Of a stretch of DNA of 64,000 nt, positions 25,640 to 52,171 are shown piece by piece. Positions within the stretch are counted from its first letter, which is position 1. Every line of letters begins with the position of its first letter. The stretch lies in contig CAWCRS010000001.1 of the NCBI GenBank assembly GCA_963798085.1, positions 288,001 to 352,000 on the forward strand, in the 5' to 3' direction. Both the position numbers and the translations under genes were made by a program. This DNA is from an uncultured Gemmatimonadales bacterium. GTDB taxonomy: Bacteria; Gemmatimonadota; Gemmatimonadetes; Longimicrobiales; RSA9. Below the pieces are notes generated by a model. It saw nothing but the letters and a program-made list of their open reading frames with translations, ran no database searches and was not told where the DNA came from.

Positions 25640-25782
25640 TCGGACCGTCCTGGCATTCTTGCGTTCTGCTCCACTGTCGCATGGCCGGGACCCGCGCTGA
25701 CATTTCTGCCCCGTTTTCATGTAGGTCGCGGTCGCATCGATAGCCAGAGCGGCCGGAAGGAAAGAATGCCAAGACGGTCCGA
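25640..25782 (+). repeat. 143-bp palindromic element, copy A2
   Basis: TCGGACCGTCCTGGCATTCTT ... TGCCCCGTTTT (25707) ... AAGAATGCCAAGACGGTCCGA. Confidence 0.9.
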
Positions 25783-26024: not shown

Positions 26025-26055
26025 GCCAAATAGATATGCCATTTATATATTTGGC
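26025..26055. promoter_or_regulatory. AT-rich palindrome upstream of class-II PadR, candidate operator/promoter
   Basis: GCCAAATAGATA-TGCCATT-TATATATTTGGC, 11/12 inverted match in a GC-rich background. Confidence 0.55.
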
Positions 26056-26134: not shown

Positions 26135-26542
26135 ATGCCCAGAAACTCGCCGAAGCCCACGCAGCCGCCGGCTCCGCTGACGCCGCTCACACCGTTGACG
26201 TACCACATCCTGCTCGCGCTCGCGGATGGCGATCGTCATGGCTACGGCATCATTCGCGAGATCGAGGAGAAACTGGGCGAGGCGGCGTCACCGAGCACGG
26301 GTGCGCTGTATCTCGCGCTGCAGCGCATGGAGGATACGGGCCTGGTCGAGGAGTCGAGCCACCGGCCGGAGCCCGAGGAAGATGACGCGCGTCGTCGCTA
26401 CTACCGCATGACGGCGATCGGGCGGGCGGCCGCGCGCGCGGAGAGCGAGAGGCTGGCGTCGCTTGTGGGTGTGGCCGCTGCGAAGCGGCTGGTGACCGGC
26501 GCCACCGTTGCGGCATCACTGCGGGGGCCGGGTCGCTCATGA
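26135..26542 (+). CDS. PadR-family regulator (class II here)
   Basis: LTPLTYHILLALADGDRHGYGII, STGALYLALQRM, DDARRRYYRMT; ATGA overlap with the permease. Confidence 0.92.
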   Translation: MPRNSPKPTQPPAPLTPLTPLTYHILLALADGDRHGYGIIREIEEKLGEAASPSTGALYLALQRMEDTGLVEESSHRPEPEEDDARRRYYRMTAIGRAAARAESERLASLVGVAAAKRLVTGATVAASLRGPGRS

Positions 26543-29241
26543 ACGGCGCGAGCGAGCGCGTGTCGCTGTGGCGCGCGGCGCTGATGCTTCTGTTCCACGT
26601 CGGGCTGCGCATCTATCCGCCGCGGTTCCGCGAGCGTCATGGCGGGCAGATGCTGGACACATTCAGGCAACGGCTGCGCGCGCGAACAGGGATGTTCGCA
26701 ACCGCTGGATTCAGTGGACGGGAACTGATTGGACTCACGGTTCACGGAGTGCTGGCACGCATGCGCCAGCCCGCCGGCCCGGAACCGCACAGGAAGCGGA
26801 GAAGAATGGGAATGGCGACACTGCTGCAGGATCTCAGGTTCGCGCTGCGCACGATCAGTCGCAATCCGGGCTGGGTGGTGATCGCGGTCACCGTGCTGGC
26901 ACTGGGCATTGGCGCCAACACGGCGATCTTCTCCGCGATCGATACCATCATGCTGCGTCCGCTGCCGCTGCATGATCAGGGGCGCATCGTGATGGTCTGG
27001 GAGAAGAATCCGGAGAAGAACTGGTACAAGGCGGTAGCGGCGCCCGCGAACATGTACGACTGGCGCGAACAGGTGAAGGCGTTCCAGGACGTTGCGGCGT
27101 ACACGGAGTTTGGCGCTGGCACGCTGACCGGGCATGGGGACCCGGCCATTCTGGTCGGCTCGCGCGTGACCGGCAACTTCTTCAATGTGGCGGGCGTGCG
27201 CCCGGCGCTCGGTCGCACCTTCCGCGAAGAGGAGACGTGGTCGGACGCGGCGCCTGTGGTGGTCCTGAGCGATGCCCTCTGGCGCGGTAGATTCGGCGCC
27301 GACCCGGCCATCGTAGGCTCGACCATCACGCTCAATGGCAAGGACTGCCAGGTCATCGGCGTGATGCCGGCCAGCTTCGATTTTCCTCGCCAGCACATGG
27401 ATATCTGGGGCCCCATGGGGTGGGATCGCAAACAGCTCGCGGACATTTCCTTCCGCCGCGCGCACTGGCTGCGTGTCATTGCGCGGCTGCGACCCGGCGT
27501 CACGCTGAAGCAGGCGGACGAGCAGCTGCAGGTGGTGGTGAATCGACTGGCGCACGACTATCCGGAGACCAACCGCGTCATGGGCGCGGGGATCACGCCG
27601 TTGCACGAGTTCCTGGTGGGTGACACGCGCACCCGCCTGTTCATTCTCATGGGCGCGGTCGGCATGCTGCTGCTGCTGGCGTGCGCCAATGTCGGCAATC
27701 TCGCGCTCGTGCGCGCATCTGCCCGCCGTCGCGAGATGGCGCTGCGCACGGCGCTGGGCGCAGGCCGGCTCCGCATTCTGCGCCAGGTACTCACGGAGAG
27801 CCTGATCATCTCGCTGACGGGTGGCGTGCTGGGGCTGGGCCTGGGCGTGATCGGTCTGCGGCTGATCATCCGGGTACGCCCCGGGGAGCTTGCCACGCTC
27901 GACACCCTGACACTCGATTATCGCGTGCTGGCCTTCACCTTCGCCGCGGCGCTTGCCGCCGGCCTGCTGTTCGGCATGTTGCCTGCTCTGCGCAGTGCGC
28001 GCTCGGATCCGGGCGACACACTGAAGGACGGCTCTCGCACCGGGACCATGGGCCGCAGGAGCCTGCGCGCCAGCAACGTCCTCGTAGTATCGGAAGTCGC
28101 ACTCGCCATGCTGCTGGTGACCGGCGCGGGCCTGCTGGTACGCAGCTTCACCGCGCTGCGCCACGTCGACCCCGGCTTCCAGACGCAGAATCGCCTGCTC
28201 GTCGATATCGCCCCATCGGGCGCATCGTACAAGACCGCAGCCAGTGTGCTCACATTGTACGACGGACTGCAGCAGCGGCTGGCGGCGCAGCCCGGCGTCG
28301 TGTCGGTCGCGATCACCAGTGCCGTACCGCTCGGGAACTCCAGCTACACGAGCGACTACGTCGCGGAGGGTCGTCCCGCTGAAGGTTATGGCACCGAAGT
28401 GCTGCACCGCAGCGTGTCGCCTGATTATTTCGAGTCCATGGGTGTTCCCATTCTCTCCGGCCGCGGTCTGGCCGACACGGACCGCGAGGGCACAGAGCCG
28501 GTACTCGTCATCAACAATGCGCTGGCGAAGAAGTACTTCCCCAATGAGGATCCCATCGGCAAGCGGCTGGCATTCGACAAGCATCCCAACGCCCAGACGC
28601 AGTGGTATCGCATCGTCGGCGTAACCGGAAGCGAGCTGCAGAACGGCGTCGGCCTGCCACCGCAGGTGGAGGTCTACCGAACACTGCGTCAGGAGGCCGC
28701 GGGCTTTGTCACGTTCATCGTGCACACACGTACGGACCCGCTCGGGCTGGTGCCGGTCGTGCGGCGCGAGCTGCGAGCCATCGACCCCGCGCTTCCGGTC
28801 TTCTCGGTGAACACTCTCGACGACGTGTATCGAGCATCACTCGCGCGCGACCGCTTTCTGCTGCTGCTGCTGAGCGCGTTCGCCGCAACAGCACTCGTGC
28901 TCGCGGCCGTCGGCATCTACGGCGTTGCATCGCAGGCGACGAAGCGGCGCACACAGGAGATCGGCATTCGCGTGGCGCTGGGCGCACGTACCGGTCAGGT
29001 GATGCGCATGATCCTCGGACAGGGCGCCGTTCTCGCCGGCGCCGGCATCATCACCGGCGTGGTGTTGTCGCTCGCGCTCTCGCAGGTCCTGCGGGGTGTG
29101 CTCTTCGGCATCGGCCCGCGCGATCCGCTCACCTTCGTCGCCGTGCCCGCCGTACTGGCGCTCGCGGCACTGCTCGCGTGCTGGATCCCGGCTCGCCGGG
29201 CTACGCGCATCGATCCGGTGGCGGCGCTGCGCATCGAGTAG
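26539..29241 (+). CDS. ADOP-like duplicated MacB/FtsX ABC permease 1 (class-II prefix)
   Basis: QDLRFALR, LALGIGANTAIFS, LLLACANVGNL, RRREMALRTALGAGR, RTQEIGIRVALGA, IPARRATRIDPVAALR. Confidence 0.93.
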   Translation: MNGASERVSLWRAALMLLFHVGLRIYPPRFRERHGGQMLDTFRQRLRARTGMFATAGFSGRELIGLTVHGVLARMRQPAGPEPHRKRRRMGMATLLQDLRFALRTISRNPGWVVIAVTVLALGIGANTAIFSAIDTIMLRPLPLHDQGRIVMVWEKNPEKNWYKAVAAPANMYDWREQVKAFQDVAAYTEFGAGTLTGHGDPAILVGSRVTGNFFNVAGVRPALGRTFREEETWSDAAPVVVLSDALWRGRFGADPAIVGSTITLNGKDCQVIGVMPASFDFPRQHMDIWGPMGWDRKQLADISFRRAHWLRVIARLRPGVTLKQADEQLQVVVNRLAHDYPETNRVMGAGITPLHEFLVGDTRTRLFILMGAVGMLLLLACANVGNLALVRASARRREMALRTALGAGRLRILRQVLTESLIISLTGGVLGLGLGVIGLRLIIRVRPGELATLDTLTLDYRVLAFTFAAALAAGLLFGMLPALRSARSDPGDTLKDGSRTGTMGRRSLRASNVLVVSEVALAMLLVTGAGLLVRSFTALRHVDPGFQTQNRLLVDIAPSGASYKTAASVLTLYDGLQQRLAAQPGVVSVAITSAVPLGNSSYTSDYVAEGRPAEGYGTEVLHRSVSPDYFESMGVPILSGRGLADTDREGTEPVLVINNALAKKYFPNEDPIGKRLAFDKHPNAQTQWYRIVGVTGSELQNGVGLPPQVEVYRTLRQEAAGFVTFIVHTRTDPLGLVPVVRRELRAIDPALPVFSVNTLDDVYRASLARDRFLLLLLSAFAATALVLAAVGIYGVASQATKRRTQEIGIRVALGARTGQVMRMILGQGAVLAGAGIITGVVLSLALSQVLRGVLFGIGPRDPLTFVAVPAVLALAALLACWIPARRATRIDPVAALRIE

Positions 29242-29329
29242 GCGAGGCCCGCGCGCGGCCGCCGCCGGACTGCGGCCCGGTATCCTGAGTCACGGCGCCT
29301 CGAGGCCGTGCTGGCGGAGGTCGCAGGCC

Positions 29330-31840
29330 TCACTCCGCGCGCAGCGCCGTCAGCGGGTGCAGGCGGGCCGCGCGCAGGGCGGGCGGCATGCCGGCGGCAG
29401 ACGCCACAGCGAGCATGGCCAGGGCCGCCGCCGCAATCGCCAATACGTCGTTAGCGGAGACCCCGAACAGCAGACTGCTCACGATGGGTCCCGCCGCAAT
29501 GGCTGCCGGAACTCCCACCACCAGGCCCGCCAGCGCCAGCAGCGCAACCTGTCGCAGGATCAGCCACAACACCGACAGAGGCTGTGCGCCCAGCGCGATG
29601 CGCACACCGATCTCCGACGTGCGGCGCGAGACCGAGTACGCGGTCACGCCGTGCAGCCCGATGCTCGCCAGCAGCAGCGCGAACAGGCCGAAGGCGGCCA
29701 GCAGCTGTGTGAACACACGCTCCTTGCCCGTGGTCCGCGCCATCTGCTCGAGCTGTGTGCGAATCTGCACCACGGGCAGATCTCGGTTCGCGTCCGCCAC
29801 GGCCCGCCTGATCCCGGGCTCGATGCGCGCGAGCGGCGCGTCTGTCCGCAACACAATGTGGTGACCGCCGTAGCCGTCGCGCTGCAGCGCCGCGTCGTAC
29901 ATGGTCGGCCGGACCGCGGACCGTTGCCTGTCGTAGCGACTGTCGCTGACCACGCCGATGATCTGCACTTCGCGTTTCCCGACCCGCAGCACGCGGCCCA
30001 GCGGCGAGACGCCGCCGAACAGCTGTTGCACGGCAGTCTCGTTCAATGCCGCGACGGACGGGCGTTCGGGTGTGTCCTGGGGCCCGGGCATGCGCCCCGA
30101 CAACAGATGCATGCCCATGGTCTCGACGAAGTCCGGGCCCACCGCGTTCATGTAGAGGTCCTGCTCACGCCCGTCAATCGTGATGCTGGTGTTGGAGGTG
30201 AGCCCGCTCAGCAGCGCGTTCTCCACCAGCGTGGCCGAGCGCACGCCCGGAACCAGACGCAGGCGCTGCAGCAGGTCCGCGTACAGCGCGGGGTATTGCT
30301 CGTGCGGCCGGCCCGTGTATCCGGGATCCACCTGGAACATGACCAGGCCGCGTGGATCGAAGCCCAGGTCGACAGCGTTCAGGTTGGCGACCGTGCGCAG
30401 CAGCAGCGCCGCGCCCACGAGCAGCGGCACCGTCAGCGCGATCTGGAACGCGATGAGTGACCGGCCCAGCATCAGCTTCGGCCCGGCGCCGCCCATAACA
30501 CGGTGTTTGAGAAACGCTCCGGGGTCCACAGCGGCCAGGCGCAGCGCGGGCAGGAGCCCGAACAGCATCGTCGCCCCGCCGCAGAGTGCCGCACACAGCG
30601 CCACCACTCTGGCATCCACCGCGGGACGGAGCGCAATCGAGCCGAAGGCCGACGAACCCAGACCGTCAGTCAGCAGTGATGCAAGCGCGCCGCGCGTCCA
30701 GAACAGGATCAGGATCCCGCACAATGTACCGCACACGGCGAGCACGAAACCCTCCAGCAGCGTCTGCCGTATCAGTCGCGTCCGTCCGCTGCCCAGCGCC
30801 CGCCGCACCGCCATCTCACGCTCGCGTGCCACACCGCGCGCCAGCATCAGCGTGGCCAGATTCACGCACGCGATCAGCAGCACCGCGCCGACAACGCCCA
30901 TCAGGATCCACAGCTGACGGCTGGTGTCGGCGCCTACGGGCTGAGGTCCGCGCGCGCCCGGCGCCAGCAGCAGAACCGGCGGCGCGCTGGCCCCTGCGTT
31001 GGCCGGCGAAGGCGCAGAACGGAACGCAGCAGTCAGGTTGCGCATCGCAGCGGGCAGGGCGCCGTGGTCTGGAACCCGCGCCATTACGCGCAACCAGAAG
31101 ATGTCGTCTGCCGTCAGCAGCGACTCGCCGTGAAGGCTCCACTGCGCCTTGACGCGCGGTTGCGCCATCAGGGGAATCGTGATGTCCGTCAGCGCGAAGA
31201 AGCCGCCATGCGACAGCCCTTCGAAGCCCTTGCCCGTCACGCCCACGACTTCCGCCGGCACGCCGTTCACGCGGATCGTGCGACCCAGCACCGCGCGATC
31301 GCCGCCGAACGCTCGCATCCAGAATGAGTAGCCCAGCACCGCGGCCAGTGGCGCATTGACATCGTTGTCCGCTTCCGTCAACCCGCGGCCGAACGCCATG
31401 GGCGGCTGCAGCACCGTGAAGTAGCGACCATCCGCGAACGCGCCACCCGCCACCACCGCCGGCTGATCGCCCGCGGCCACACTGAGTGCGTTCACGAAAT
31501 TGAACGCGAACAGCTGCGCGCCCGGAGCCGCATCACGCATGGATCGATAGAGCGGGTAGCTGAAATTGCTGCGGTACGACTCGCCGCTCGCCGGATCGCG
31601 ATAGGAGCTGGATGCCACCTGGCTGATCTTCAGGTCGCCGGAACGCGCCCAGTACGCGATCACCAGCTGCTCCGGCCGCTGCACCGGCAGCGGATCCCGC
31701 AGCATGTTCGTGATCGTGCCGAATAACGCGCCGTTAGTCCCGATCCCGAGCGCCAGCGACAGCACCGCGACCAGCGTGAACCCCGGACTGCGCGCCAGTA
31801 CGCGCAACACGTACCGCAGATCCGTTACCAGGCCTGCCAT
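29330..31840 (-). CDS. ADOP-like ABC permease 2 (no N-terminal prefix)
   Basis: TDLRYVLR, LALGIGTNGALF, LLIACVNLATL, RRTSEIGVRIALGA, PLTALRAE; GAGGTG RBS. Confidence 0.92.
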   Translation of the reverse strand: MAGLVTDLRYVLRVLARSPGFTLVAVLSLALGIGTNGALFGTITNMLRDPLPVQRPEQLVIAYWARSGDLKISQVASSSYRDPASGESYRSNFSYPLYRSMRDAAPGAQLFAFNFVNALSVAAGDQPAVVAGGAFADGRYFTVLQPPMAFGRGLTEADNDVNAPLAAVLGYSFWMRAFGGDRAVLGRTIRVNGVPAEVVGVTGKGFEGLSHGGFFALTDITIPLMAQPRVKAQWSLHGESLLTADDIFWLRVMARVPDHGALPAAMRNLTAAFRSAPSPANAGASAPPVLLLAPGARGPQPVGADTSRQLWILMGVVGAVLLIACVNLATLMLARGVAREREMAVRRALGSGRTRLIRQTLLEGFVLAVCGTLCGILILFWTRGALASLLTDGLGSSAFGSIALRPAVDARVVALCAALCGGATMLFGLLPALRLAAVDPGAFLKHRVMGGAGPKLMLGRSLIAFQIALTVPLLVGAALLLRTVANLNAVDLGFDPRGLVMFQVDPGYTGRPHEQYPALYADLLQRLRLVPGVRSATLVENALLSGLTSNTSITIDGREQDLYMNAVGPDFVETMGMHLLSGRMPGPQDTPERPSVAALNETAVQQLFGGVSPLGRVLRVGKREVQIIGVVSDSRYDRQRSAVRPTMYDAALQRDGYGGHHIVLRTDAPLARIEPGIRRAVADANRDLPVVQIRTQLEQMARTTGKERVFTQLLAAFGLFALLLASIGLHGVTAYSVSRRTSEIGVRIALGAQPLSVLWLILRQVALLALAGLVVGVPAAIAAGPIVSSLLFGVSANDVLAIAAAALAMLAVASAAGMPPALRAARLHPLTALRAE

Positions 31841-31933
31841 GTTCACCTCGGTTGTGCGTTCCTCTCATTGGACATGGCGGTGAGCCCGAATGGTTGCCAC
31901 ACCGCCTCCGGGATGCATCCGCCGAGGCAGCCA

Positions 31934-32122
31934 TCGGACCGGCCTCTCCGTTCCCCTCGCGGCCGCCACGCCCATCGACATGATCCATGGCGGCCTCCCG
32001 GTCGAACCGTCCTGGCGTTCTTTTCTTGCGACCGCTACGGCTATCGACCTGACTCAAGGCAACCTCCTGTCGGACCGTCTTGGCGTTCTTTCCTTGCGGC
32101 GTCCACGGCTATCGATGTGACC
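31934..32122. repeat. Three 68-bp-period copies of the end of element A, decaying outward
   Basis: Units start at 31934 (TCGGACCGGCC..), 32002 (TCGAACCGTCCTGGCGTTCTT..) and 32070 (TCGGACCGTCTTGGCGTTCTT..); they share ACG..ATCGA..GA and GGC..CCTCC. Confidence 0.75.
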
Positions 32123-32212
32123 CGGCGCGACTGCAAAACGGGGCAGGAATGACGGCGTGAGTCATGACCCTGCGCATATGGCGCGCAATGCAAGAATGCC
32201 AAGACGGTCCGA
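32070..32212 (-). repeat. 143-bp palindromic element, copy A3 (inverted relative to A1/A2)
   Basis: TCGGACCGTCTTGGCGTTCTT ... AAAACGGGGCA (32135-32145) ... AAGAATGCCAAGACGGTCCGA. Confidence 0.9.
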
Positions 32213-32216
32213 ATAC

Positions 32217-32237
32217 TCCCCTTGCGTCGCGATGGGA
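32217..32237. promoter_or_regulatory. 21-bp palindrome, candidate class-I PadR operator
   Basis: TCCCCTTGCG-T-CGCGATGGGA (8/10 paired), 40 bp upstream of the PadR ATG. Confidence 0.5.
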
Positions 32238-32276
32238 AGAGGACCATCTTCTCCGCTGCAAACCACGGAGGCACAC

Positions 32277-32624
32277 ATGGACGATCTCGATGGCAAGCTG
32301 CTGCGCGGCACGCTCGAGCTGCTCATCCTGAAGTCGCTCAGCTGGGGCGCGCAGCACGGCTATGGCATTGCGGAATGGATCGAGGCGACGACGGGTGCGA
32401 CCGTGCTCGTCGGCGAGGGCACGCTCTATCCGGCGCTGCACCGTCTGGAGCGCAACGGACTGATCGAAGCGGAGTGGGGCATCTCGGACAACAACCGCAA
32501 GGCCAAGTTCTACACGCTGGCGCGGGCGGGCCGGAAGCGGCTGGAGTCAGGCACCACGTCGTGGCAGCGGTTCGTGGAGGCGACCGGCCGGGCGCTGCTC
32601 TCGACGCGGCCGAAGGCGGGCTGA
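32277..32624 (+). CDS. PadR-family regulator, acidobacterial type (class I here)
   Basis: LLRGTLELLILKSL, HGYGI, EGTLYPALHRLE, AEWGISDNNRKAKFY; TGATG coupling to the permease. Confidence 0.95.
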   Translation: MDDLDGKLLRGTLELLILKSLSWGAQHGYGIAEWIEATTGATVLVGEGTLYPALHRLERNGLIEAEWGISDNNRKAKFYTLARAGRKRLESGTTSWQRFVEATGRALLSTRPKAG

Positions 32625-35386
32625 TGCGGCCGCCGGGCTGGCGCCGTCTGCTGCGCCTGGATGTGGGCGCCCGACATGTGGAGCGCGAAGTGGATGATGA
32701 GCTGGCGTTTCACATCGAGATGCGCACGCGCAAGCTCGTGGCGAAGGGCATGGATGCCGCTTCCGCGCGGGCGGAAGCGATGCGGCAATTCGGCGACATC
32801 GCCGTGGTACGCAATGCGCTGCTGGGCCTCGAAGGCGGCCGGCAGCGCGGGGCCCGGCGGGCGCGTCGCTGGCGCGAGCTGAAGCAGGATCTCGGCTACG
32901 CGGTGCGCACGCTGCGGCGGCAACCCGTGTTTGCCGGAGTGCTGCTCGTCTCGCTGGCGCTGGGCATGGGTGCGAACACGGCTGTTTTCACGCTGGTCGA
33001 TGCCATCCTGCTGCGGCCGCTGCCCGTGCCGCATCCCGAACAGCTGGTCGCCATGGGCAATGTCGGGCGTGTGAACAGCCTGTCCACGGGAGGCCCGCGC
33101 ACCGATCTCCTGTCCGTACCGATCTATCGCGATGTGCAGGATGCGAGCCCTCTGCTGACCGGGCTGCTGGCGTCGGGCCGCACGGGCGGACTCGATGTCG
33201 TCATCGACAGCGGCAGCACGCCAGGGTCCGGGCGGGCGGAGCATCCGCGAGGTCGGCTGGTGTCGGGCAACTACTTCAGCGTGCTGGGCGTGTCCGCCCT
33301 TCTGGGTCGCACCTTCACGGTCGCGGATGATCGCGTGCCGGATGGATCGCCTGTCGTGGTGCTCAGTCAGGCCTGGTGGAAGGCGAGGTTTGGTGGCGAC
33401 CGCAGCGTGATCGGGCGCGTGCTCCGTGTCAACGGACGCGACTACACGATCATAGGCGTGGCAATGCCGGGTTATGGCGGCGAAATCGTGGGGCAGCCGA
33501 CTGACCTCTGGATTCCCTTGAGCATGCAGCCGGCAATCGAGCAGGGGTCGAACCGGCTCGAGGATCGCGCCTCCAGCTGGCTTCTGCTCATGGGCCGCAT
33601 GACGGAGCACGGCACGGTGGCGCAGGTGCGCACGAGCTTCCGCGCACTGATCACACGCTCGATCGATGCCCATGCTTCAGCGGCCGAGCTGGCGCCCGAA
33701 CGCGTGGCTGCGCGGGAGCCGCTGCGCGTGCAGCCGGGCGGGCGCGGCTTCTCCTGGGTGCGCGGCCACTACGCGCGGCCGCTGCTGACACTGATGGTGG
33801 CAGTGGCGCTGGTGCTGCTCGTGGTGTGTGCCAACGTCGCTAACCTGCTGTTCGCGCGCGGCGTTTCCCGCAGCCGCGAGCTGGGACTGCGGGTGGCGCT
33901 CGGCGCGGGCCGCGACCGGCTGCTGCGCCAGTTGCTCACCGAAACCGTGCTGCTGGCGGCTGCCGGCGGGGGGCTGGGCCTGCTAATGGCCTGGTGGGGC
34001 AGCACCGCGTTAGTCAGGCTTGCAGCACTGGGGCCGGCAGTGCTGGCGGAAGGCTGGCGCCTGGACTGGCGCATCTTCGGGTTCGCGGGCGGCCTCGCGC
34101 TGCTCACGGTGCTGCTCTGCGGACTGGCGCCGGCGTTGCGCGCCACGCGGGCGCAGCCTGCTGCGGTGCTGCGCGAGCAGGGTCGCGGCGTGACCGGCGG
34201 CGCCGCGCACTCGGCCGGCCGCTTCGCGATGGGCCGGGTGCTGGTCGGCGCTCAGGTGGCACTGTCGCTGATGCTGCTCGTCGGCACGAGCCTGCTGGTG
34301 CGGAGCATCCACAAACTGCAGTCACAGGATCCGGGGCTGGCGCAGGAGCAGCTGTTGCTCGTGGACGTGGACGTCGCGCCCACTGGTCTGCAGCACCCGG
34401 CACTGCAGGCGCTGGCCGTCTCAGTTGCCGACCATCTGCGCCAGATGCCGGGTGTTGCCGCCGCCACGTTCTCGGAGAACGGCATCTTCAGCGGCACGGA
34501 ATCCGCCACGAGTCTCACCGTTCCCGGATTTGTCGCGCGCACAATGGACGATACGGTCGTGAATTACGACCGTGTGGGTCCGGGCTACTTTCGCGCGATC
34601 GGCGCGCGACTGCTGCTCGGCCGGGATATCGAGGACAGCGACCGCGCGGGTGCGCCGGGTGCGGCCGTGATCAATCAGACAATGGCGAGGTTCTATTATC
34701 CGGGCGGCGCTGCGGCAGGCCAGCACATCACGGTGGACAGCGTCGACTACCAGATCGTCGGCGTCGTCGCGGATACGCGGGATCACACGCTGCGTGGCGA
34801 CGCGGTGCGCCGCCTGTATCTGCCGCTGGCGCAGTCGCGCGAGGGCATCGGGGAACTGCATTTCGAAGTGCGCGCCGCAGCTCCGCTCGAGGTCGCGCAT
34901 GCCGTTCGAGCCGCCGTTCTCGCGGTGCATCCACAGCTGCGCCTGCTGTCGATCGATCCGTTGACTCGCCTGATGCGCGACTCGATCGGTCAGGATCTGC
35001 TGCTCGCGAGGCTCGTCAGTTTCTTCGGGGTGCTGGCGCTCGTGCTCGCAGCGCTCGGCCTGTACGGCGTACTGAGCTACCTGACCGCACAGCGAACCAG
35101 CGAATTCGGACTGCGCATGGCGCTGGGCGCCGCGCCCCGCACCGTGAGTCGCATGGTGCTGGGTGAAGCGCTGCTGCTGGTGGCTGCCGGCGCCGCAGCC
35201 GGCCTGCCCATGTCGCTGGGCGTAGCGTGGCTCATGCGTAATCAGCTGTTTGGGGTATCGCCGGCCGATCCGGTGTCCGTGGGCATTGCGCTGCTCGTGC
35301 TGGCTGGCAGTGCGACCTGCGCGGGCTGGCTGCCCGCCGCACGCGCCGCACGCGTGGGCCCGCTCACTGCGCTGCGGTCGGACTGA
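32624..35386 (+). CDS. ADOP-like ABC permease 3 (class-I prefix)
   Basis: EVDDELAFHIEMR..GM..ARAEAMRQFGD prefix; QDLGYAVR; LALGMGANTAVF; CANVANL; RTSEFGLRMALGA. Confidence 0.93.
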   Translation: MRPPGWRRLLRLDVGARHVEREVDDELAFHIEMRTRKLVAKGMDAASARAEAMRQFGDIAVVRNALLGLEGGRQRGARRARRWRELKQDLGYAVRTLRRQPVFAGVLLVSLALGMGANTAVFTLVDAILLRPLPVPHPEQLVAMGNVGRVNSLSTGGPRTDLLSVPIYRDVQDASPLLTGLLASGRTGGLDVVIDSGSTPGSGRAEHPRGRLVSGNYFSVLGVSALLGRTFTVADDRVPDGSPVVVLSQAWWKARFGGDRSVIGRVLRVNGRDYTIIGVAMPGYGGEIVGQPTDLWIPLSMQPAIEQGSNRLEDRASSWLLLMGRMTEHGTVAQVRTSFRALITRSIDAHASAAELAPERVAAREPLRVQPGGRGFSWVRGHYARPLLTLMVAVALVLLVVCANVANLLFARGVSRSRELGLRVALGAGRDRLLRQLLTETVLLAAAGGGLGLLMAWWGSTALVRLAALGPAVLAEGWRLDWRIFGFAGGLALLTVLLCGLAPALRATRAQPAAVLREQGRGVTGGAAHSAGRFAMGRVLVGAQVALSLMLLVGTSLLVRSIHKLQSQDPGLAQEQLLLVDVDVAPTGLQHPALQALAVSVADHLRQMPGVAAATFSENGIFSGTESATSLTVPGFVARTMDDTVVNYDRVGPGYFRAIGARLLLGRDIEDSDRAGAPGAAVINQTMARFYYPGGAAAGQHITVDSVDYQIVGVVADTRDHTLRGDAVRRLYLPLAQSREGIGELHFEVRAAAPLEVAHAVRAAVLAVHPQLRLLSIDPLTRLMRDSIGQDLLLARLVSFFGVLALVLAALGLYGVLSYLTAQRTSEFGLRMALGAAPRTVSRMVLGEALLLVAAGAAAGLPMSLGVAWLMRNQLFGVSPADPVSVGIALLVLAGSATCAGWLPAARAARVGPLTALRSD

Positions 35387-35399
35387 TCCGCCGGCTGCG

Positions 35400-38105: not shown

Positions 38106-38128
38106 GCTGGCTCGGCCTCCGCGGTGCT

Positions 38129-38149
38129 TCACCGGAAACGTTCCGGGGA
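38129..38149. promoter_or_regulatory. 21-bp palindrome, candidate class-I PadR operator
   Basis: TCACCGGAAA-C-GTTCCGGGGA (8/10 paired), 24 bp upstream of the permease-4 ATG. Confidence 0.5.
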
Positions 38150-38227
38150 AGGAAGGATACGGTAATGCCGGTCGCGAGCGGGGGCAAGCGCCATGCCTGG
38201 CGCTGCCGCGAACCGATTCCGCGCGCC

Positions 38228-38261
38228 GAGCCGCGAAGGTACGGCCTGTCCTTCGCGGCTC
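38228..38261 (-). terminator. GC-rich hairpin after permease 5 (terminator/stabiliser; no clear U-tract)
   Basis: GAGCCGCGAAGG-N10-CCTTCGCGGCTC, perfect 12-bp stem. Confidence 0.5.
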
Positions 38262-38275
38262 CGCGTGGGGAACGA

Positions 38276-40927: not shown

Positions 40928-40938
40928 GTTCCTGCCGC

Positions 40939-43629
40939 CTACTCGATGCGCAGCGCCGCGGCCGGATCCGTGCGCCCGGCTCTGGCTGCAGGAATCAGAC
41001 TGGCCAGCACCGAAACCAGGAAGAGCGTCGTCGCCACCACGGCGTACGTCAGCGCATCGTGCGCCGAAGTGTCGAACAGCAGCGGCTCGATCAGGCGCCC
41101 GCTGGCAAAGGCCAGCACCGTGCCGATCACCACGCCCACGGCAACGAGCCCGGTTCCCGTGCGCAGGACCATCAGCACGATGTCACGTACGCCCGCGCCC
41201 AGCGCCATGCGAATGCCCAGCTCGGCTCGCCGCTGCAATACGCCGTAGGCGATCACGCTGTACAGGCCGACAGCGGCGATGAGCAGGGCGAGGGCGCCGA
41301 ACAGGCCGAACATGCTGGCGCCCAGACGCCAGGGGCGGATCTGCGGGTCGAGGGCCTGCTGCAGGGTCTCGAGTTCCACATAACCGAGTGTTGGATCCAG
41401 GCGACGAAGCTGCGCTTCGATCGACGCCGCCAGCGCAGGCATGCGCACGCCGCGCGGCCGCACGGCCAGCAGCGGTCCGGATATGCCGGACTGCTGGGCG
41501 ATGGGCATGTAGAACTGCATGGCCTTGAGTTCGCGCAGCGCCAGCCGGCGCGCGTCTTCCACGACGCCCACAATGCGCGCGCAGGGCGAGTCGGGCTTGT
41601 CGATGATGATGCACTTGCCGAGCGCGTCTTCGCCCGGCCACAGCGTGCCGGCCATGGTCTGATTCACGATTGCGACCGGCTCGCTCCCGGCGCGGTCGGC
41701 GGGCGTGAATTCGCGACCCGCGAGCAGCTTCGTTCCCACGGTCGCGAAGTAGCCATCGGAAACCGCGCTCGCGTACGGCCCGCCGCCCGGCATGTCGGGA
41801 ATCGAATCGCGCCCGGGCACACGCAGATCGAGACCAAGCATGGCGTGGAATGGCGTGCCGACGGACAGCGCGGCGTCCGCCACCTCGGGAAGCGCGCGCA
41901 CCTGCTCCAGTGCCTGCACGAAGAACGCGCTGCGATGCTGCTCGCCGGCGGGCGTGTCGGGCGTGCCCGGCCACTGGGGCTGCACCGCCAGGACGCGTTC
42001 CGGCTCGATACCCAGGTGCAGTGCGCGAACGCGCGCGAGACTGCGCAGGAACAGGCCACCCGCCACCAGCAGCACCAGCGAGAGCGTGGCCTGCAGGATG
42101 GTGAGTGCATGACGGGTGCGCGCGGCCGACACACCGGCACCGCCCTCGCGCCGCCCGGCCTTGAGCGAATCGTTCAGGTTGCTGCGCAGCGCCTTCACAC
42201 AGGGCACGAGGCCGGTGAGCACGCCGCAGAACAGTGTCAGCACTGCGCCGAACACGACAACGCGCGTGTTCACAGGCGCCGCATCCCAGTGCACATCGGG
42301 CAGGAGCAGCCCGCGCACGATCCTGCCACCCCAGTTGGCGACCGCCAGTGCCGCGGCACCGCCGCCGAGCGCGAGCAGCACGCTCTCGGTCAGCAGCAGT
42401 CGCACTACGCGCAGGCGGCTGGCGCCCAGCGCCACACGCACGCCCACTTCGCGCTGTCGCCGAATGGCCCGCGTCAACAGCAGGTTCGTGATGTTCGCAC
42501 AGGCGATGAGCAGTACCACCAGCGACACGCCCATCAGCCAGCGCGCCACGGCCACTTCGGGCGGCTCCGCGCCGAACATGTCATGGACCAGCGGGCGCAC
42601 ACTCATGCGCGCCGCTTTTTCCGCCGCGGCCGTGCCGCCGTAGCCCGCCTGGTAGAGGCTCGTCGCTTCGCGACCCGCCTGCTGCGCGCTCACGCCCGGA
42701 TGCAAACGTACCACGATCGTGAGCCACTTCGCGCGCCACGTCGAAGCCCAGTCGGACCGCGGCTGTTCCAGCGCCGACACGGGTATCCACAGTTTCACGG
42801 GCGCCAGTTCCGGACCCGTGAGGCCGCGCGGCGCCACGCCGATCACAGTGAACGGCCGTTCCCCGATGACGACCTGCCTGCCGATTACATTCGGGTCGCC
42901 GCTGAATTCAGACTGCCACCAGTCGTGATCGAGCACTACCACATCGTTACCACGGGGCGGGCGATCTTCCTCCGCATTGAAGAAGCGGCCCAGTTCGGGG
43001 CGCACACCCAGCAGAGGCAGCAGGTCCCACGATGCCGCTGCCACCGGCAGTTTTCTCGCCTGGGCACCGCGACCCACGAGCATGTCCCGCGACTTGAAGA
43101 TGCCGGCGTCGAAGGAATGCGCCTGTTGCTTCAACAGCGTGTACGTCGCGTAACCCATGGGGCTGATGGTGCGCTCCGGCTGTCCGGGAAAGGTGATGGT
43201 TTCGTACAGTCGCAGCACGGCGGCCGGCTCGCGCACATGGTCGGGTCCACGCAGCAGCAGCCGGTCGATCACGCCGAACATGATGGCATTCGCACCCACG
43301 CCCAGCGCCAGTGTGACCAGCACGACACCCGCCAGCATGCGATCGCCCCACAGGCTGCGCAGGGATTGACGGACGTCCCGGGTCCACGACGACAGCACCT
43401 CGCGCACCCGCATGCGACCCTCCTTTGCATTCGCCAGGCGATAGAGCCGACGGCGCGCCCGCGCCATTGATCCGAAATTTGCGGCCGCCTGCTGCCAGGC
43501 CCGCGCCGGTTCCACGCCGTCCTGCATCAGCCGGCGCGCGCGCAGTTCCACGTGCAGGTCGATCTCCTCATCCACCTGGCGCGCGATCTCGTCACGCCGG
43601 CGAGCCCGCAAACGGAAATACCGCTTCAA
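40939..43629 (-). CDS. ADOP-like ABC permease 6 (class-I prefix), TTG start
   Basis: VDEEIDLHVELR..GV..AWQQAAANFGS; LALGVGANAIMF; LIACANITNL; RRAELGIRMALGA. Confidence 0.92.
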   Translation of the reverse strand: MKRYFRLRARRRDEIARQVDEEIDLHVELRARRLMQDGVEPARAWQQAAANFGSMARARRRLYRLANAKEGRMRVREVLSSWTRDVRQSLRSLWGDRMLAGVVLVTLALGVGANAIMFGVIDRLLLRGPDHVREPAAVLRLYETITFPGQPERTISPMGYATYTLLKQQAHSFDAGIFKSRDMLVGRGAQARKLPVAAASWDLLPLLGVRPELGRFFNAEEDRPPRGNDVVVLDHDWWQSEFSGDPNVIGRQVVIGERPFTVIGVAPRGLTGPELAPVKLWIPVSALEQPRSDWASTWRAKWLTIVVRLHPGVSAQQAGREATSLYQAGYGGTAAAEKAARMSVRPLVHDMFGAEPPEVAVARWLMGVSLVVLLIACANITNLLLTRAIRRQREVGVRVALGASRLRVVRLLLTESVLLALGGGAAALAVANWGGRIVRGLLLPDVHWDAAPVNTRVVVFGAVLTLFCGVLTGLVPCVKALRSNLNDSLKAGRREGGAGVSAARTRHALTILQATLSLVLLVAGGLFLRSLARVRALHLGIEPERVLAVQPQWPGTPDTPAGEQHRSAFFVQALEQVRALPEVADAALSVGTPFHAMLGLDLRVPGRDSIPDMPGGGPYASAVSDGYFATVGTKLLAGREFTPADRAGSEPVAIVNQTMAGTLWPGEDALGKCIIIDKPDSPCARIVGVVEDARRLALRELKAMQFYMPIAQQSGISGPLLAVRPRGVRMPALAASIEAQLRRLDPTLGYVELETLQQALDPQIRPWRLGASMFGLFGALALLIAAVGLYSVIAYGVLQRRAELGIRMALGAGVRDIVLMVLRTGTGLVAVGVVIGTVLAFASGRLIEPLLFDTSAHDALTYAVVATTLFLVSVLASLIPAARAGRTDPAAALRIE

Positions 43630-43699
43630 GGGACCCTGCTCCGTCCTGACACGGCGTTAGATGCCGCTCGCCGCAGCCGCCGGCGCACGCTGGTCACGC

Positions 43700-44044
43700 T
43701 CAGCTCCGGCGGGGCTGGACATTGAGGATCGTCGTCAGCGTCTCCGCATAGCGCATGAGCCGCTCACTCTCCCGCTTCAGATGCGCACGCCCCTCACGGG
43801 TGATCCTGTAATAGCGCGCGCGCCGGTTGTTTTCCGTCACGCCCCACTCCGCCTCCACCAGCGCCCGACCCTCCAGCCGGTAGAGCGCCTGGTAGAGCGC
43901 GGAATCATCCACATCCAGCGCACCCGCCGAGTTCCGCTCCAGCCACACGGTGATCTCGAAACCGTGCAGCGGCCCATCACTCAGGGCCTTCAGCACCAGC
44001 ACGTCCAGCGTCCCCTTCACCACGCTCAGCGATTGCTTCACCAT
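43700..44044 (-). CDS. PadR-family regulator, acidobacterial type (class I here)
   Basis: VVKGTLDVLVLKAL, HGFEI, DSALYQALYRLE, AEWGVTENNRRARYY; GGAGGGA RBS. Confidence 0.95.
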   Translation of the reverse strand: MVKQSLSVVKGTLDVLVLKALSDGPLHGFEITVWLERNSAGALDVDDSALYQALYRLEGRALVEAEWGVTENNRRARYYRITREGRAHLKRESERLMRYAETLTTILNVQPRRS

Positions 44045-44065
44045 TCCCTCCAGAGTCTGGATGGA
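44045..44065. promoter_or_regulatory. 21-bp palindrome over the RBS of class-I PadR, candidate operator
   Basis: TCCCTCCAGA-G-TCTGGATGGA (9/10 paired); overlapping TCCAGAGTCT..AGACTCTGGA repeat. Confidence 0.6.
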
Positions 44066-44247
44066 GACTCTGGATGGATGCGGCCGGCGCCGCGGCCTGT
44101 CAACACTCGCGATGCGTTTGCCGGCTCGGGCCCGGCTCGCGCCACGGCACGACGACACGGTTCCCCGTCACTTCGGCCCTTGGCACGGCCCATCCGTCCC
44201 CGGCCGCGCGTGAGTGGCAACGGCGAGGTGGTCGGACGCCCTTACTG

Positions 44248-44262
44248 TCTCCATGATGGAGA
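44248..44262. promoter_or_regulatory. Perfect 15-bp palindrome upstream of class-II PadR
   Basis: TCTCCAT-G-ATGGAGA, 27 bp before ATG 44289. Confidence 0.4.
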
Positions 44263-44288
44263 GAGACAGGCACACGGAGATCACGGAC

Positions 44289-44636
44289 ATGGCTGATGCA
44301 ACACGATTCCTGCCCCTCACTCATCTCGGGTTTCACGTGCTGCTCACGCTGGCCGAGGGGCCGGGGCACGGCTACGCGATCATCCGCGAAGTCGAGCGTC
44401 GCTCGGACGGGTTGGTGTCGCCGGGCACGGGCTCGTTCTACGAAGTGATGCGCAAGCTGCGCGCGGACGGTCTGATCGAAGACTCGCCATCGCCGGCCGG
44501 CGATGATGCCCGGCGCAAGCATTACCGGTTGACGCGGCTGGGCGCGGATGTGCTGCGGCTCGAAGCGGCAAGGCTGGAGACGCTGCTGCGCGAGGCGAGG
44601 CGCATCGGTTTCCTGGCGAAGGCGGCGCGCGCATGA
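44289..44636 (+). CDS. PadR-family regulator (class II here)
   Basis: PLTHLGFHVLLTLAEGPGHGYAII, GTGSFYEVMRKL, DDARRKHYRLT; ATGA overlap with the permease. Confidence 0.92.
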   Translation: MADATRFLPLTHLGFHVLLTLAEGPGHGYAIIREVERRSDGLVSPGTGSFYEVMRKLRADGLIEDSPSPAGDDARRKHYRLTRLGADVLRLEAARLETLLREARRIGFLAKAARA

Positions 44637-47434
44637 GCGGCACCGGAACCCGCGTGTTCGCGCTGCTGTTCCGCGCACTGGTTCGGCTGGCCCCGCCGTC
44701 TGGTCGGGGCTGGGCGTCGGAATCGCTTGCGGTATCCCTGGCGCGATTGCGAGATGCGCGGGCGCGCGGGCGTTTCGCCGGTCTGCACTTCGCGCTGGCC
44801 GAGCTGCTCGATGCCGCGGGCGCAGTGTATCGCGAGCGTCGTGTGTGGCGCCGTGAGCGGCGCGCGGCCAGCCGCGCGCACAATGACGCAACCCACTCGA
44901 CCGGAATATCGATCATGGACATGGTTCGTGACGTCCTGCTCGCCGCGCGCGGCCTGCGCCGGCGTCCGCTGCTCTCCCTCGGCGTGATGGCCACGCTGGC
45001 CTTCGGCATCGCGGTGACGACGGTGATGTTCGGCGTGGTCTCGACCGTGTTGTGGCGGCCGCTGCCGTTCGATCATCCGGAGCGGGTGTACGTGATCTGG
45101 GCGCACATGCCGCAGATCGATCTGGGCTATCCCGAGCTGCCCATTCACGGCACGCATTTCACGCGGATCCGCGAGCGCTCCCACACGATCGACGCGGTGG
45201 CGGCGTTCAAGGCGGACGTGTTCAATCTGGAGGATGGCAGCGCGCACGAGCGCATCGACGGCCTGCGCACGACGGGCGGGCTGTTCCGCGCGATCGGTGT
45301 GCGTCCACTGCTGGGCCGCTTCTTCGACGAGCCGGAGGAGACGCCCGGTCGCGATCATGTCGTGGTCCTCAGCTACGACCTGTGGCGCCGGCAGTTCGGC
45401 GCCGATCCGGCGATCATCGGCCGGGCCATTCGCGTGAGTGGCGAGCCTTACACGGTGTTGGGCGTAGCGCCGCAGGGCTTCGCGTTCCCGCGCGGTGGTG
45501 AGATGCCGAAGAACTTCCAGATGCCGAAGCGGACCGAGCTGTGGGTGCCCATGGCGCCCGCGCAGCGGGGTCCATCGGATCTGGCACTGATTGCGCGCGT
45601 CCGCCCCTCCGTCACACTGCCGCAGCTGCAGGCCGACCTGGACCGCATTTCCGTGCTGGCGGGCGAGGAAACGCATGCGAAGGGCTGGTGGGACACGCAG
45701 GCCGTAGCCCTGCGCCAGCAGGTGGTGGGTGGCACTGCGCCCATGCTCATCGTGCTCTTCGCAGCCGTGCTGCTGGTCATGCTCATCGCCTGCGCCAATG
45801 CTGCGCAACTCCTGTTAGCCAGTGCCCTGGCGCGGCAGCGTGAATTTGCCGTACGCAGTGCGCTCGGCGCGCGGCGGGGCCGTCTGGTGCGGCAGGTGTT
45901 CGTGGAGGCGCTGCTGCTGGCCGCGCTCGCCGGAGCTGCCGGCGCGCTGCTCTCGCGCGCGGGCGCCGATCTCGTTCGCGCGTGGGGACCGGAACGACTG
46001 CCGCGGCTCGCCGACATCCGCGTCGACCCGCGTGTCTTCATTTTCGGCCTGCTGCTGACCACGCTCACCGGCATTCTGTTCGGCGTCGTCCCCGCCGTTG
46101 CCGGAACGCGGCTCGAGCCGTGGCCCCGCGGTTTCGGCCGCCGGCGACCGGCGCATCTGCAGTCGGCGAATCTGGCGCGCGTGCTGCGCGCCGGCGGCCG
46201 CGGCGCCACGGGCGGGCCGGGCGCGAGGCTGCGCCAGCTCTTCCTCGTCACCGAGGTGGCCTTGTCACTCGTGTTAGTCGCCGGCGCCGGCCTGCTGCTG
46301 CGCAGCCTCGACCTGCAATACCGCACCGATCTCGGCTTTCAGCCTGCGGGCACGCTGACCTTCGAGGTCACGCTGCCCAACGTGCGCTACCGCGAGGCTC
46401 CCGGCGAGCCGACGTATCTGGTCAATCCCGCAGTGGTCGGTTTCATCAGCACCGCGCTGGAACGCCTGCGCGAATTGCCTGGGGTTCAGGCTGCGTCGAT
46501 GGCGAAGCCACTACCGCTGAGCGGCGCGCAGGAAGCGAGCGTCTACCTGGTCGAGGGGCATCTGCCCAGGACGCCCGACGAGACACCGGTCGCCGAATAC
46601 ACGGTGATTGGTCCGGACTTCTTCCTCGCCATGGGCTCAGCGCTGCTCGAAGGGCGCGAGTTCACCGCAGACGACGATTCCGCCTCGGCCGCCGTCGTCA
46701 TTGTCAACAGGGCGATGGCCTCGAGCGTGTGGCCGGGCGAGGATCCGATCGGCAAGCGCATCAAGCTGCCGCCGCCCAACCGTCCGTGGATGACGGTGGT
46801 GGGCGTGGCGCCCGACATCAAGGAGTTCAGCATCGCCGAGAAGGCCAGGCCGATCCTGTTCGTTCCCTACCGGCAGCGACCCTACCCGCCGCTCGCCACG
46901 AGCACGCTGTTAGTGCGTTCAGCGGGCGATCCGCGCACCCTGCTGGACGGCGTGCGCCGGGAAATTGCGGCGCTGGATCCGGAGCTGCCGCTGGCCAGCA
47001 TCCGCACGGTGAGCGACCTGGTCGATCAGGCAACGGCCGAACCTCGTTTCGCCACGCTGCTGCTCAGCGGTTTCGCGCTCGCAGCCAGTATGCTGGCCGC
47101 GCTCGGCCTGGGCGGTCTGACGGCGTACCTCGTGACGCAGCGGCGCCGCGAACTCGGAATCCGGCTGGCACTCGGCGCGACCCATCGTCGCCTGGTCAGT
47201 GAAGTGCTGTTCGAAGGCCTGCGCGTGACCGCAGCGGGAGTCTGCATCGGCCTGCTGGTGGCTGTGCTGTCGACGCGGCTGCTGCGCACCATGCTCTACG
47301 GCGTGTCGGCGCTCGATCCGGTGACGTTCCTGCTCGCGCCACTCGTGTTGACGGCCGCGGTCGCTGCCGCGTGTGCGCTGCCCGCGTGGCGCGCCGCGCG
47401 CGTCGACCCGCGCACGACGCTGGACGCCGGCTGA
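44633..47434 (+). CDS. ADOP-like ABC permease 7 (class-II prefix)
   Basis: LLFRALVRLAPP prefix; TLAFGIAVTTVMF; LIACANAAQL; RRRELGIRLALGA; PAWRAARVDP. Confidence 0.92.
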   Translation: MSGTGTRVFALLFRALVRLAPPSGRGWASESLAVSLARLRDARARGRFAGLHFALAELLDAAGAVYRERRVWRRERRAASRAHNDATHSTGISIMDMVRDVLLAARGLRRRPLLSLGVMATLAFGIAVTTVMFGVVSTVLWRPLPFDHPERVYVIWAHMPQIDLGYPELPIHGTHFTRIRERSHTIDAVAAFKADVFNLEDGSAHERIDGLRTTGGLFRAIGVRPLLGRFFDEPEETPGRDHVVVLSYDLWRRQFGADPAIIGRAIRVSGEPYTVLGVAPQGFAFPRGGEMPKNFQMPKRTELWVPMAPAQRGPSDLALIARVRPSVTLPQLQADLDRISVLAGEETHAKGWWDTQAVALRQQVVGGTAPMLIVLFAAVLLVMLIACANAAQLLLASALARQREFAVRSALGARRGRLVRQVFVEALLLAALAGAAGALLSRAGADLVRAWGPERLPRLADIRVDPRVFIFGLLLTTLTGILFGVVPAVAGTRLEPWPRGFGRRRPAHLQSANLARVLRAGGRGATGGPGARLRQLFLVTEVALSLVLVAGAGLLLRSLDLQYRTDLGFQPAGTLTFEVTLPNVRYREAPGEPTYLVNPAVVGFISTALERLRELPGVQAASMAKPLPLSGAQEASVYLVEGHLPRTPDETPVAEYTVIGPDFFLAMGSALLEGREFTADDDSASAAVVIVNRAMASSVWPGEDPIGKRIKLPPPNRPWMTVVGVAPDIKEFSIAEKARPILFVPYRQRPYPPLATSTLLVRSAGDPRTLLDGVRREIAALDPELPLASIRTVSDLVDQATAEPRFATLLLSGFALAASMLAALGLGGLTAYLVTQRRRELGIRLALGATHRRLVSEVLFEGLRVTAAGVCIGLLVAVLSTRLLRTMLYGVSALDPVTFLLAPLVLTAAVAAACALPAWRAARVDPRTTLDAG

Positions 47435-48531: not shown

Positions 48532-48600
48532 TCGCTATTTCAATTCCGTCGGGAGTTCACCATTTCAGGGACAGCCACCCGGTGCTCCGTGTTACTTCGG

Positions 48601-48817: not shown

Positions 48818-48880
48818 GTCCCTCCAGGAACACTGCGGGCGGCCCGGCAGAACAGCCGGACCGCCCGCGCTAACGCTCGG

Positions 48881-52083: not shown

Positions 52084-52171
52084 AGCACGGGGGGGGCGTC
52101 ACGGCAGCGCTTGAGCAGTCGTTGGTGTTTCCTGACATCGCGCTTTGCGGGACAGCCTCAGTCGCGTGTGC

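Follow-up and report, generated by a model that had tools for sequence, protein, structure and literature searches.

Matched classes of PadR regulators and permease heads in a Gemmatimonadales bacterium: a candidate membrane-tethered antirepressor

Dyads consisting of a PadR regulator and a HAAS-domain protein, together with a hypothesis for their role in signalling, have already been published (with ACO32024.1 as an example), and in the available portion of that account they are put forward as an alternative to two-component signalling, with no tested mechanism given there (Ravi 2024, PMC11237479). In Listeria, the DUF1048 protein LftS is described as the partner of the PadR regulator LftR (PMC4517056) and, according to the accessible part of a later report, is required to relieve repression by LftR (10.1101/2023.07.27.550809). 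The present analysis concerns a 64,000-nucleotide stretch of DNA (‘the window’: positions 288,001 to 352,000 of contig CAWCRS010000001.1, assembly GCA_963798085.1) from an uncultured Gemmatimonadales bacterium, in which PadR genes precede genes for ADOP permeases that carry N-terminal extensions (‘prefixes’ or ‘heads’). For one type of these pairs, termed class I below, the available text of that account already gives both the architecture and the idea of a signalling role (PMC11237479). New here are a five-class lock between PadR and prefix with out-of-sample counts, candidate class-specific operators, an interface model and a single shared ATPase; no paper on the class pairing, the operators, the interface or the shared ATPase was found in the literature searched, the coverage of which excludes most subscription journals.

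An earlier, sequence-only reading of the window had proposed seven ADOP-like permeases and four PadRs, and profile searches bear this out: all seven permeases exceed the TIGR03434 (ADOP) cut-off of 622 bits over the whole model (713-970 bits), and all four PadRs carry PF03551. The two class I regulators (PadR2 and PadR3, starting at 32277 and 44044) pass TIGR03433 (padR_acidobact; cut-off 101.8 bits), and the two of class IIa (PadR1 and PadR4, starting at 26135 and 44289) fail it, with 55.4 and 53.6 bits (Table 1). As that reading had stated, the class I PadRs lead permease 3 and the array of permeases 6, 5 and 4, which have a common head: three of the four class I heads (permeases 3, 4 and 5) pass the perm_prefix_1 family (NF038403; cut-off 30 bits), and the fourth (permease 6), although it scores below that value, still aligns with them. 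The heads of permeases 1 and 7, which it had called unrelated to these, have no match to NF038403, and permease 2 is without any prefix. The motifs that had been quoted for the classes are found in the translations, apart from one small slip (PadR3 reads GTLDVLV). The ATGA coupling of PadR and permease genes is also real, at 26539-26542 and 44633-44636, but is not peculiar to class II, since the class I gene for PadR2 is coupled too (TGATG).

The genome from which the window derives contains 146 ADOP core starts, 70 of which have a PadR gene just upstream; 65 of these pairs were usable (five, with a broken PadR or a short prefix, were left out), and their PadRs, prefixes and permease bodies were clustered separately. 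At k=6 the blind partitions of PadRs and prefixes agree with an adjusted Rand index (ARI) of 0.90, versus 0.04 for PadRs and bodies, and five matched classes hold 62 of the 65 pairs, the remaining three prefixes having the look of frameshifts. Agreement between PadR and prefix persists at k=5-8 (ARI 0.70-0.90) but vanishes at k=2-4 (-0.03 to 0.09), and the natural count is therefore five; the corresponding Mantel correlations are 0.49 (p=0.0005) for PadR and prefix and 0.00 for PadR and body. Thus, the genome holds at least five PadR/prefix classes (I, IIa, IIb and the small IIc and IId). The two classes of the sequence-only reading describe the window correctly, but a genome-wide two-class split was dropped, as blind clustering at k=2-4 fails to recover it. 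When class profiles were run on this same genome, the prefix could be classified for 76 of 89 PadR matches and agreed in class with the PadR every time, a count that is mostly circular since the profiles were trained on the same genes. A prefix and a PadR accompany 71 of the 146 cores, a prefix only 16, a PadR only three, and neither 56; where a prefix-only ADOP has a PadR within 12 kb upstream, it agrees with that regulator’s class (7/7). The small classes IIc (three pairs) and IId (two pairs) each have motifs of their own (L050-L054). An intact frame of 740-900 residues is present in only 115 of the 146 cores, and the others may be assembly errors or pseudogenes.

Profiles built from the window’s genome were also applied to 104 loci of other genomes of the same phylum, chosen by PadR searches. 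There, 91 of 105 PadRs have a classifiable prefix, and the classes match in every case (38 in class I, 43 in IIa and 10 in IIb); the remaining 14 are without one. A metagenome scan built around the IIa prefix by itself yielded at least 121 loci, and among the matches listed an upstream PadR is present in 108, of class IIa in 108/108; the bodies at these 108 loci are ADOPs in 68 cases and other proteins in 23, with 17 contig ends, and the other 13 loci listed comprise four with room but no PadR, eight that are cut off and one without a prefix match. A scan of a genome collection with PadR1 returned three loci, the closest relatives found being Gemmatimonadales records, and phyla outside the window’s own were sampled only via unlabelled metagenome contigs. 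The linkage figures from outside the window’s genome are counts rather than p-values, since kin are not independent. No cross-class pair occurs among the 91 classifiable pairs from other genomes or the 108 listed metagenome PadRs, and random assortment of the two sets of classes, the outcome named beforehand as fatal to a partnership, was not seen (91/91, 108/108 and the ARI of 0.90). Within class IIa, one PadR clade (L130, L132, L134 and L138) has no downstream prefix gene; by eye, two of its members precede an aldehyde-dehydrogenase-like open reading frame (ORF).

For 59 intact triplets, prefix class requires four changes, the lowest number possible, on the PadR tree (28.8 after shuffling) and 24 on the tree of bodies (28.5 after shuffling); for all 76 prefixed bodies it requires 30 changes (35.8 after shuffling). 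Classes are mixed within four small body clades supported at 0.98 or more, and the deep body branches are poorly resolved. Sorting by class holds for all three parts of the PadR (4-6 changes; labels outside the window’s own genome were assigned from matched pairs), and within classes PadR and prefix distances are correlated both in class I (r=0.34, p=0.002, n=22) and in IIb (r=0.46, p=0.004, n=9). The permease body fails to track PadR/prefix class. By these sequence comparisons, PadR and head travel as a cassette; because adjacency in the DNA can yield all of the linkage results, linkage alone establishes no contact.

A complex of two copies of PadR1 with the head of permease 1 was modelled from own alignments, together with three controls. 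The cognate class IIa complex reached an ipSAE of 0.80, versus 0.02 for the best of the controls; among solved complexes 116 of 157 attain the mark used for this score, and among mismatched pairs 2 of 215, a calibration only roughly valid with own alignments. The runs share at least 91% of their contacts, with a partner pLDDT of at least 81. In the model, one head contacts one PadR subunit, with helices 2 and 3 of the head placed against residues 23-25, 28, 42-48, 50-51, 72 and 74-76 of the regulator (numbered from 26171). Operator contacts in Bacillus subtilis PadR are made by Tyr20, His38, Ser39, Gln40, Tyr42 and Lys67 (PMC5728393), and LftR relies on the same pair of tyrosines (PMC6457526), in the available portions of those papers. 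The equivalents of the B. subtilis contacts in PadR1, assigned from conservation and from the 22-residue spacing of the tyrosines, are Y25, T43, G44, A45, Y47 and R75, all inside the modelled interface. On the head, the interface columns are rich in acidic residues (D/E 20% vs 6%, p=0.005), and their excess of conservation is not significant (p=0.12). That the modelling reproduced an already solved complex of this kind is unlikely, because neither sequence nor fold comparison turned up a solved structure related to the head: sequence searches of the PDB gave no match, fold searches with both prefix models (class I and IIa) gave only generic helical matches (Z<8) and no specific one, to DUF1048 (PDB 2O3L) or otherwise, and an Atlas search gave only unnamed clusters, under 0.9. 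The model suggests binding of the head at the face with which PadR contacts DNA. The proposal that the prefix is a class-specific PadR partner has to this extent gained ground, with strict linkage and a cognate IIa complex that passed the mark in modelling.

The upstream regions of the pairs contain 21-bp palindromes that differ by class: Tccc-T...A-gggA (I), TATAtcc-N5-ggaTATA (IIa) and ttCTAC-N3-GTAGaa (IIb). Operator motifs trained on other genomes (12, 70 and 10 sequences for I, IIa and IIb) put 44 of 65 upstream regions of the window’s own genome in the right class (18/25, 20/30 and 6/10, respectively), and before the 56 bare ADOPs they pass threshold only 2, 1 and 4 times, a background level. 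Inside the window, the candidate site upstream of PadR1 (26030..26050) exceeds the null threshold also with the IIa motif trained only on other genomes; it is AT-rich, and the class I and IIb motifs exceed threshold there as well. All motif scores upstream of permease 2 fall below threshold, and the gap between PadR3 and PadR4 contains no clear match to the operator motifs. In a promoter scan, candidate operators were placed at or near promoter-like boxes; the scan is partly circular for IIa, where the operator arms resemble a -10 box, and in class I just 11 of the 25 best promoters lie within -25..+20 of the operator, a further 10 being at +25. The position of the candidate operators would fit autorepression.

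The reading that we consider probable, with appreciable room for error, is that of a tethered antirepressor head on an ATPase-driven permease, encoded in an operon that is autoregulated by a PadR of its own class. The module would comprise a class-specific palindrome, a PadR repressor and an ADOP permease of the type VII ABC kind, the N-terminal helical head of which would bind the DNA-binding face of its own-class PadR while tethered to the membrane. A PadR bound in this way could not occupy its operator, so that capture would bring derepression; the head would be exposed only upon a signal (substrate or the ATPase cycle), with capture as the ‘on’ state. Capture rather than release is assigned to that state because in the model the head covers the surface with which PadR contacts DNA, and because the palindromes are located at promoters; the need for LftS to relieve LftR repression in Listeria provides a genetic analogue. 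Gating is favoured because arrays with three heads per PadR would otherwise stay on. The same recognition-helix positions would read both DNA and head, locking operator, PadR and head in one class, and permease bodies could be exchanged while that lock is kept. Each head would be expected to prefer PadRs of its own class.

Covariation in class I, which was not used for the complex model, was examined at two contacts picked from the IIa model beforehand; the IIa helix was mapped onto class I via a common acid-hydrophobic pair (hhalign gives the same register, at a nonsignificant E of 0.39-0.65). Among 64 class I pairs, PadR Pro43 occurs with head Tyr41 in 4/4 and other residues with His41 in 60/60, and Glu or Asp at position 43 accompanies Arg or Lys at head position 45 in 25 of 34 cases, as Gln43 does Glu45 in 16 of 24. 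By mutual information (MI) with average product correction (APC), pair 43-45 ranks 1 of 7,526, with 47-41 at rank 9 and 43-41 at rank 31; the remaining 11 listed pairs rank 292 or worse. This hints that class I may use the same PadR face as class IIa.

A number of results weigh against the antirepressor reading. Covariation, which had been put forward as a check, gave a divided answer: pair 43-45 is top-ranked in class I, but in class IIa (130 rows, effective number 100, in the alignment common to the complex model) the inter-protein signal is weak, with a mean z of 0.65 for predicted contacts against 0.33 when shuffled, a top z not above the shuffles, and all 14 listed contacts at rank 152 or worse by MI-APC. 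The class I signal itself amounts to some three to four independent changes, with one counter-clade of three, and its top z (5.36) is inside the range of maxima obtained by shuffling (mean 4.97, top 5.64); the register between classes I and IIa is an assumption. PadR and prefix distances are uncorrelated in class IIa (r=0.08, p=0.26, n=23), and the two genes are neighbours on the DNA, so that linkage alone is not co-evolution. The operator motifs cross-react, with 11 of 30 IIa upstream regions exceeding the IIb threshold. Finally, the structural evidence is one modelled pair, of class IIa, and close cousins can also pass the mark.

How the permeases might be powered can be judged from the genome as a whole. 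The sequence-only reading had noted that the window has no ATPase or adaptor gene, and indeed none of the genome’s 51 LolD/MacB-type matches and 26 RND adaptor matches falls there. The count for the whole genome, which it had called for, comes to about 11 LolD/MacB-type ATPases, including two with frameshifts; judged by eye, nine stand with non-ADOP permeases of their own, another is an orphan, and the last, at C7:516797, belongs to a TolC-adaptor-ATPase-ADOP run on contig C7. Orthologues of this last ATPase (at least 71% identity) are present in 14 of 15 ADOP-bearing genomes and in 0 of 26 others, where the best match is at most 57%; the ADOP-bearing genome without one has two ADOPs and 360 contigs. 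An adaptor stands upstream at 13 of the 14 ATPase loci, and an ADOP directly downstream at 10. The TM2-TM3 loop, described in the available part of the literature on MacB as its major coupling helix (PMC5985334), is among the most conserved parts of the 115 intact bodies, and coupling motifs are equally kept in prefixed (45/76) and bare (22/39) bodies. Because one ATPase locus tracks the ADOPs and the coupling helix is conserved, the permeases are most likely orphan only locally, sharing one TolC-adaptor-ATPase set in trans. The suggestion of receptors that work without an ATPase does not survive this co-occurrence (14/15 vs 0/26) and the conservation of the coupling motifs. The orphan MacB-type ATPase (L058:1750-4951; G000:C2:83750-86950, where G000 is the window’s own genome) is a possible second ADOP ATPase; it lies behind what we take, by eye, to be a BlaI-like regulator and an M56/TonB-like protein.

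These observations also bear on the direction of signalling. In the sequence-only reading the permease held its PadR and released it, a direction that is probably reversed, with the interface on the DNA-binding face and the palindromes at promoters. A receptor of that type, close to the published proposal (Ravi 2024), in which the resting permease holds PadR, a signal frees it onto DNA, and transport is secondary or lost, is in our estimation unlikely: some 146 ADOP cores face just two ATPases that lack non-ADOP permeases of their own, translational coupling would deliver PadR and prefix together, and the complex model cannot say which state is bound, but the distribution of the C7 ATPase, the equal retention of coupling motifs with and without a prefix, and the available accounts of Listeria dyads, whose PadRs repress by default and need LftS for induction, all speak for a different arrangement. 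To be doubted to the same degree is constitutive binding, where the ratio of PadR to prefix or proteolytic release of the head would set expression, possibly in a bistable manner. Tight translational coupling, the binding of the isolated head in the model and the frequent occurrence of the IIa head on short or non-ADOP proteins would agree with it, yet arrays with three heads per PadR (35400-44044) would presumably stay on, and the prefix-only ADOPs within 12 kb of a PadR match its class in 7/7 cases. Most improbable is that PadR and prefix move as a DNA block by recombination in the conserved body start, with no binding and with the prefix serving folding or targeting, since their adjacency, the four well-supported sister clades of bodies with differing classes and the weak residue-level co-evolution are outweighed by the complex score (0.80 vs 0.02), the persistence of the pairing where the body is unrelated (23 cases in metagenomes and 14 in genomes), the detection of a prefix in 71 of 74 PadR-led ADOP cores as against 16 of 72 others, and the sorting of all three PadR parts by class (4-6 changes).

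The antirepressor reading may be extended, tentatively and with rather less than even expectation of being right, as follows. A substrate-engaged permease would expose its head, capture its own PadR and amplify its own gene, giving a use-dependent choice among paralogues that share one ATPase; about half of these would bear a head from one of five or more classes insulated from each other, the operator/PadR/head cassette would move between bodies, and capture would also explain LftS and the wider HAAS-PadR dyads. If true, the classes would be orthogonal membrane-to-gene switches. The modelling offers a residue-level hypothesis (that the head would occlude the DNA-binding face of PadR), candidate operators and a large unannotated partner family are supplied, the window holds natural cognate and non-cognate controls, and one conserved ATPase per genome would explain how ‘orphan’ ADOP permeases can be powered.

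The heads fall into several families. Class I is perm_prefix_1 and HAAS-like: its heads have an invariant Gly at the helix break and no Pro, and only 2 of 24 match PF22564 (best E only 0.05). Two traits of the HAAS superfamily recur here, namely three consecutive helices, predicted for class I and IIa heads alike, and a standalone PadR as gene neighbour. The permease 1 head is modelled with helices at 3-23, 28-48 and 52-76 (pLDDT 76), and that of permease 3 (class I) also with three helices (pLDDT 84). The IIa family comprises 10,623 clusters at 50% identity; among the best 150 of these, 36 run on into an ADOP core, and many others are, by eye, unrelated bodies or fragments. No Pfam or NCBIfam family, HAAS included, matches any of 24 IIa members, NF038403 and NF038404 match 0/24 at E up to 1, and the GxP kink is absent from the IIa consensus. 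Seven of nine class IIb heads match NF038404 (perm_prefix_2), and the likeness of IIa to IIb heads is weak (hhalign E 6e-4 to 9e-4, probability 23-30%). One ADOP head in another genome (G021, L323:1033-3108), preceded by a class I-like PadR, scores high enough for the Pfam HAAS cut-off and links PF22564 with perm_prefix_1. Carriers of the IIa head other than ADOPs (P0125, P0132, P0135, P0140, P0114, L142, L144 and L158) were also seen, and fusions, by eye, join this head to PP2C phosphatase-, Clp N-domain-, sugar transferase-, EF-hand- and membrane glycosyltransferase-like bodies.

Table 1. Features of the window (last row: elsewhere in the same genome)
Feature	Position	Strand	Remarks
Candidate class IIa operator	26030..26050	.	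21-bp imperfect palindrome, TATA-type arms; top IIa score of the 64 kb window, 17.6 bits
PadR1, class IIa	26135..26542	+	PF03551, fails TIGR03433; chain 1 of complex model
Class IIa prefix of permease 1	26539..26820	+	Predicted three-helix cytoplasmic head; no Pfam/NCBIfam family; partner in complex model
ADOP permease 1	26539..29241	+	TIGR03434 969.8 bits; ATGA overlap with PadR1 at 26539-26542
ADOP permease 2, no prefix, no PadR	29330..31840	-	TIGR03434 713.5 bits, from ORF residue 6
Candidate class I operator	32217..32237	.	Top class I score in window, 14.4 bits; passes with motif trained on other genomes
PadR2, class I	32277..32624	+	TIGR03433 123.5 bits
ADOP permease 3, class I prefix 32624-32878	32624..35386	+	TIGR03434; NF038403 43.5 bits; TGATG overlap with PadR2 at 32622-32626
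ADOP permease 4, class I prefix, third in array	35400..38105	-	TIGR03434; NF038403 42.6 bits
ADOP permease 5, class I prefix, second in array	38276..40927	-	TIGR03434; NF038403 46.1 bits
ADOP permease 6, class I prefix, first in array, TTG start	40939..43629	-	TIGR03434; NF038403 24.3 bits
PadR3, class I	43700..44044	-	TIGR03433 110.7 bits
Perfect 10-bp inverted repeat over PadR3 ribosome-binding site; possible operator	44049..44074	.	Read from sequence; under class I motif threshold
PadR4, class IIa, divergent from PadR3	44289..44636	+	PF03551, fails TIGR03433; aligns with class IIa PadRs
ADOP permease 7, class IIa prefix 44633-44920	44633..47434	+	TIGR03434 813 bits; ATGA overlap with PadR4 at 44633-44636
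TolC-adaptor-ATPase-ADOP run	C7:513-521 kb		

The genes that flank the permeases (21449-25038 and 47452-52138) encode an S9 dipeptidyl peptidase, an esterase with TPR, a PepSY_TM protein and an M14 peptidase, and the N-terminus of the ORF at 19296-20498 (minus strand) resembles, by eye, what we take to be a TIR domain. A short REP-like repeat forms facing pairs between genes at 25660-25780, 32020-32210 and 56166-56320, and has 183 matches (at most one mismatch) in the genome, seven of which are inside the window.

Set beside the systems that are already described, class I fits the published HAAS-PadR dyads in gene order and domain order, and the available text on those dyads likewise proposes a two-protein signal from membrane to DNA with release or reconfiguration of a factor; that text places the contact at the GxP groove, and the portion available names no classes, operators or shared ATPase (Ravi 2024, PMC11237479). 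The IIa head is unlike that HAAS domain, with no GxP and no profile match, and its helices 2 and 3 are modelled on the DNA-binding face of PadR. Existing NCBIfam models cover the bodies (TIGR03434), class I PadRs (TIGR03433), class I heads (NF038403) and IIb heads (NF038404), but none of the four covers a class IIa PadR or head. In the LftR-LftS and LltR/LstR operons of Listeria, a PadR has a partner of the HAAS superfamily that is needed for induction, as is proposed here; LftS, however, is a separate small protein, the ABC transporter target is encoded elsewhere, and the accessible parts of these reports leave the mechanism of LftS open (PMC4517056, PMC6624303, 10.1101/2023.07.27.550809). 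CarS of Myxococcus xanthus is described as an antirepressor that sequesters the recognition helix of its repressor, much as in the present model, but it is soluble, has an SH3 fold and acts on an unrelated repressor, which makes it an analogy rather than a member (PMC2926617, in the portion available). The type VII ABC systems MacAB-TolC, LolCDE and FtsEX have the same membrane fold and TM2-TM3 coupling helix, and the ADOP prefix occupies the position of MacB’s fused ATPase, judging from the available part of that description (PMC5985334). Unlike those systems, one ATPase gene here appears to serve tens to about 146 permease paralogues. BceAB-type transporter-sensors provide a further comparison, and the output proposed here would be a repressor, as against the kinase or hydrolase of type VII and BceAB-type systems.

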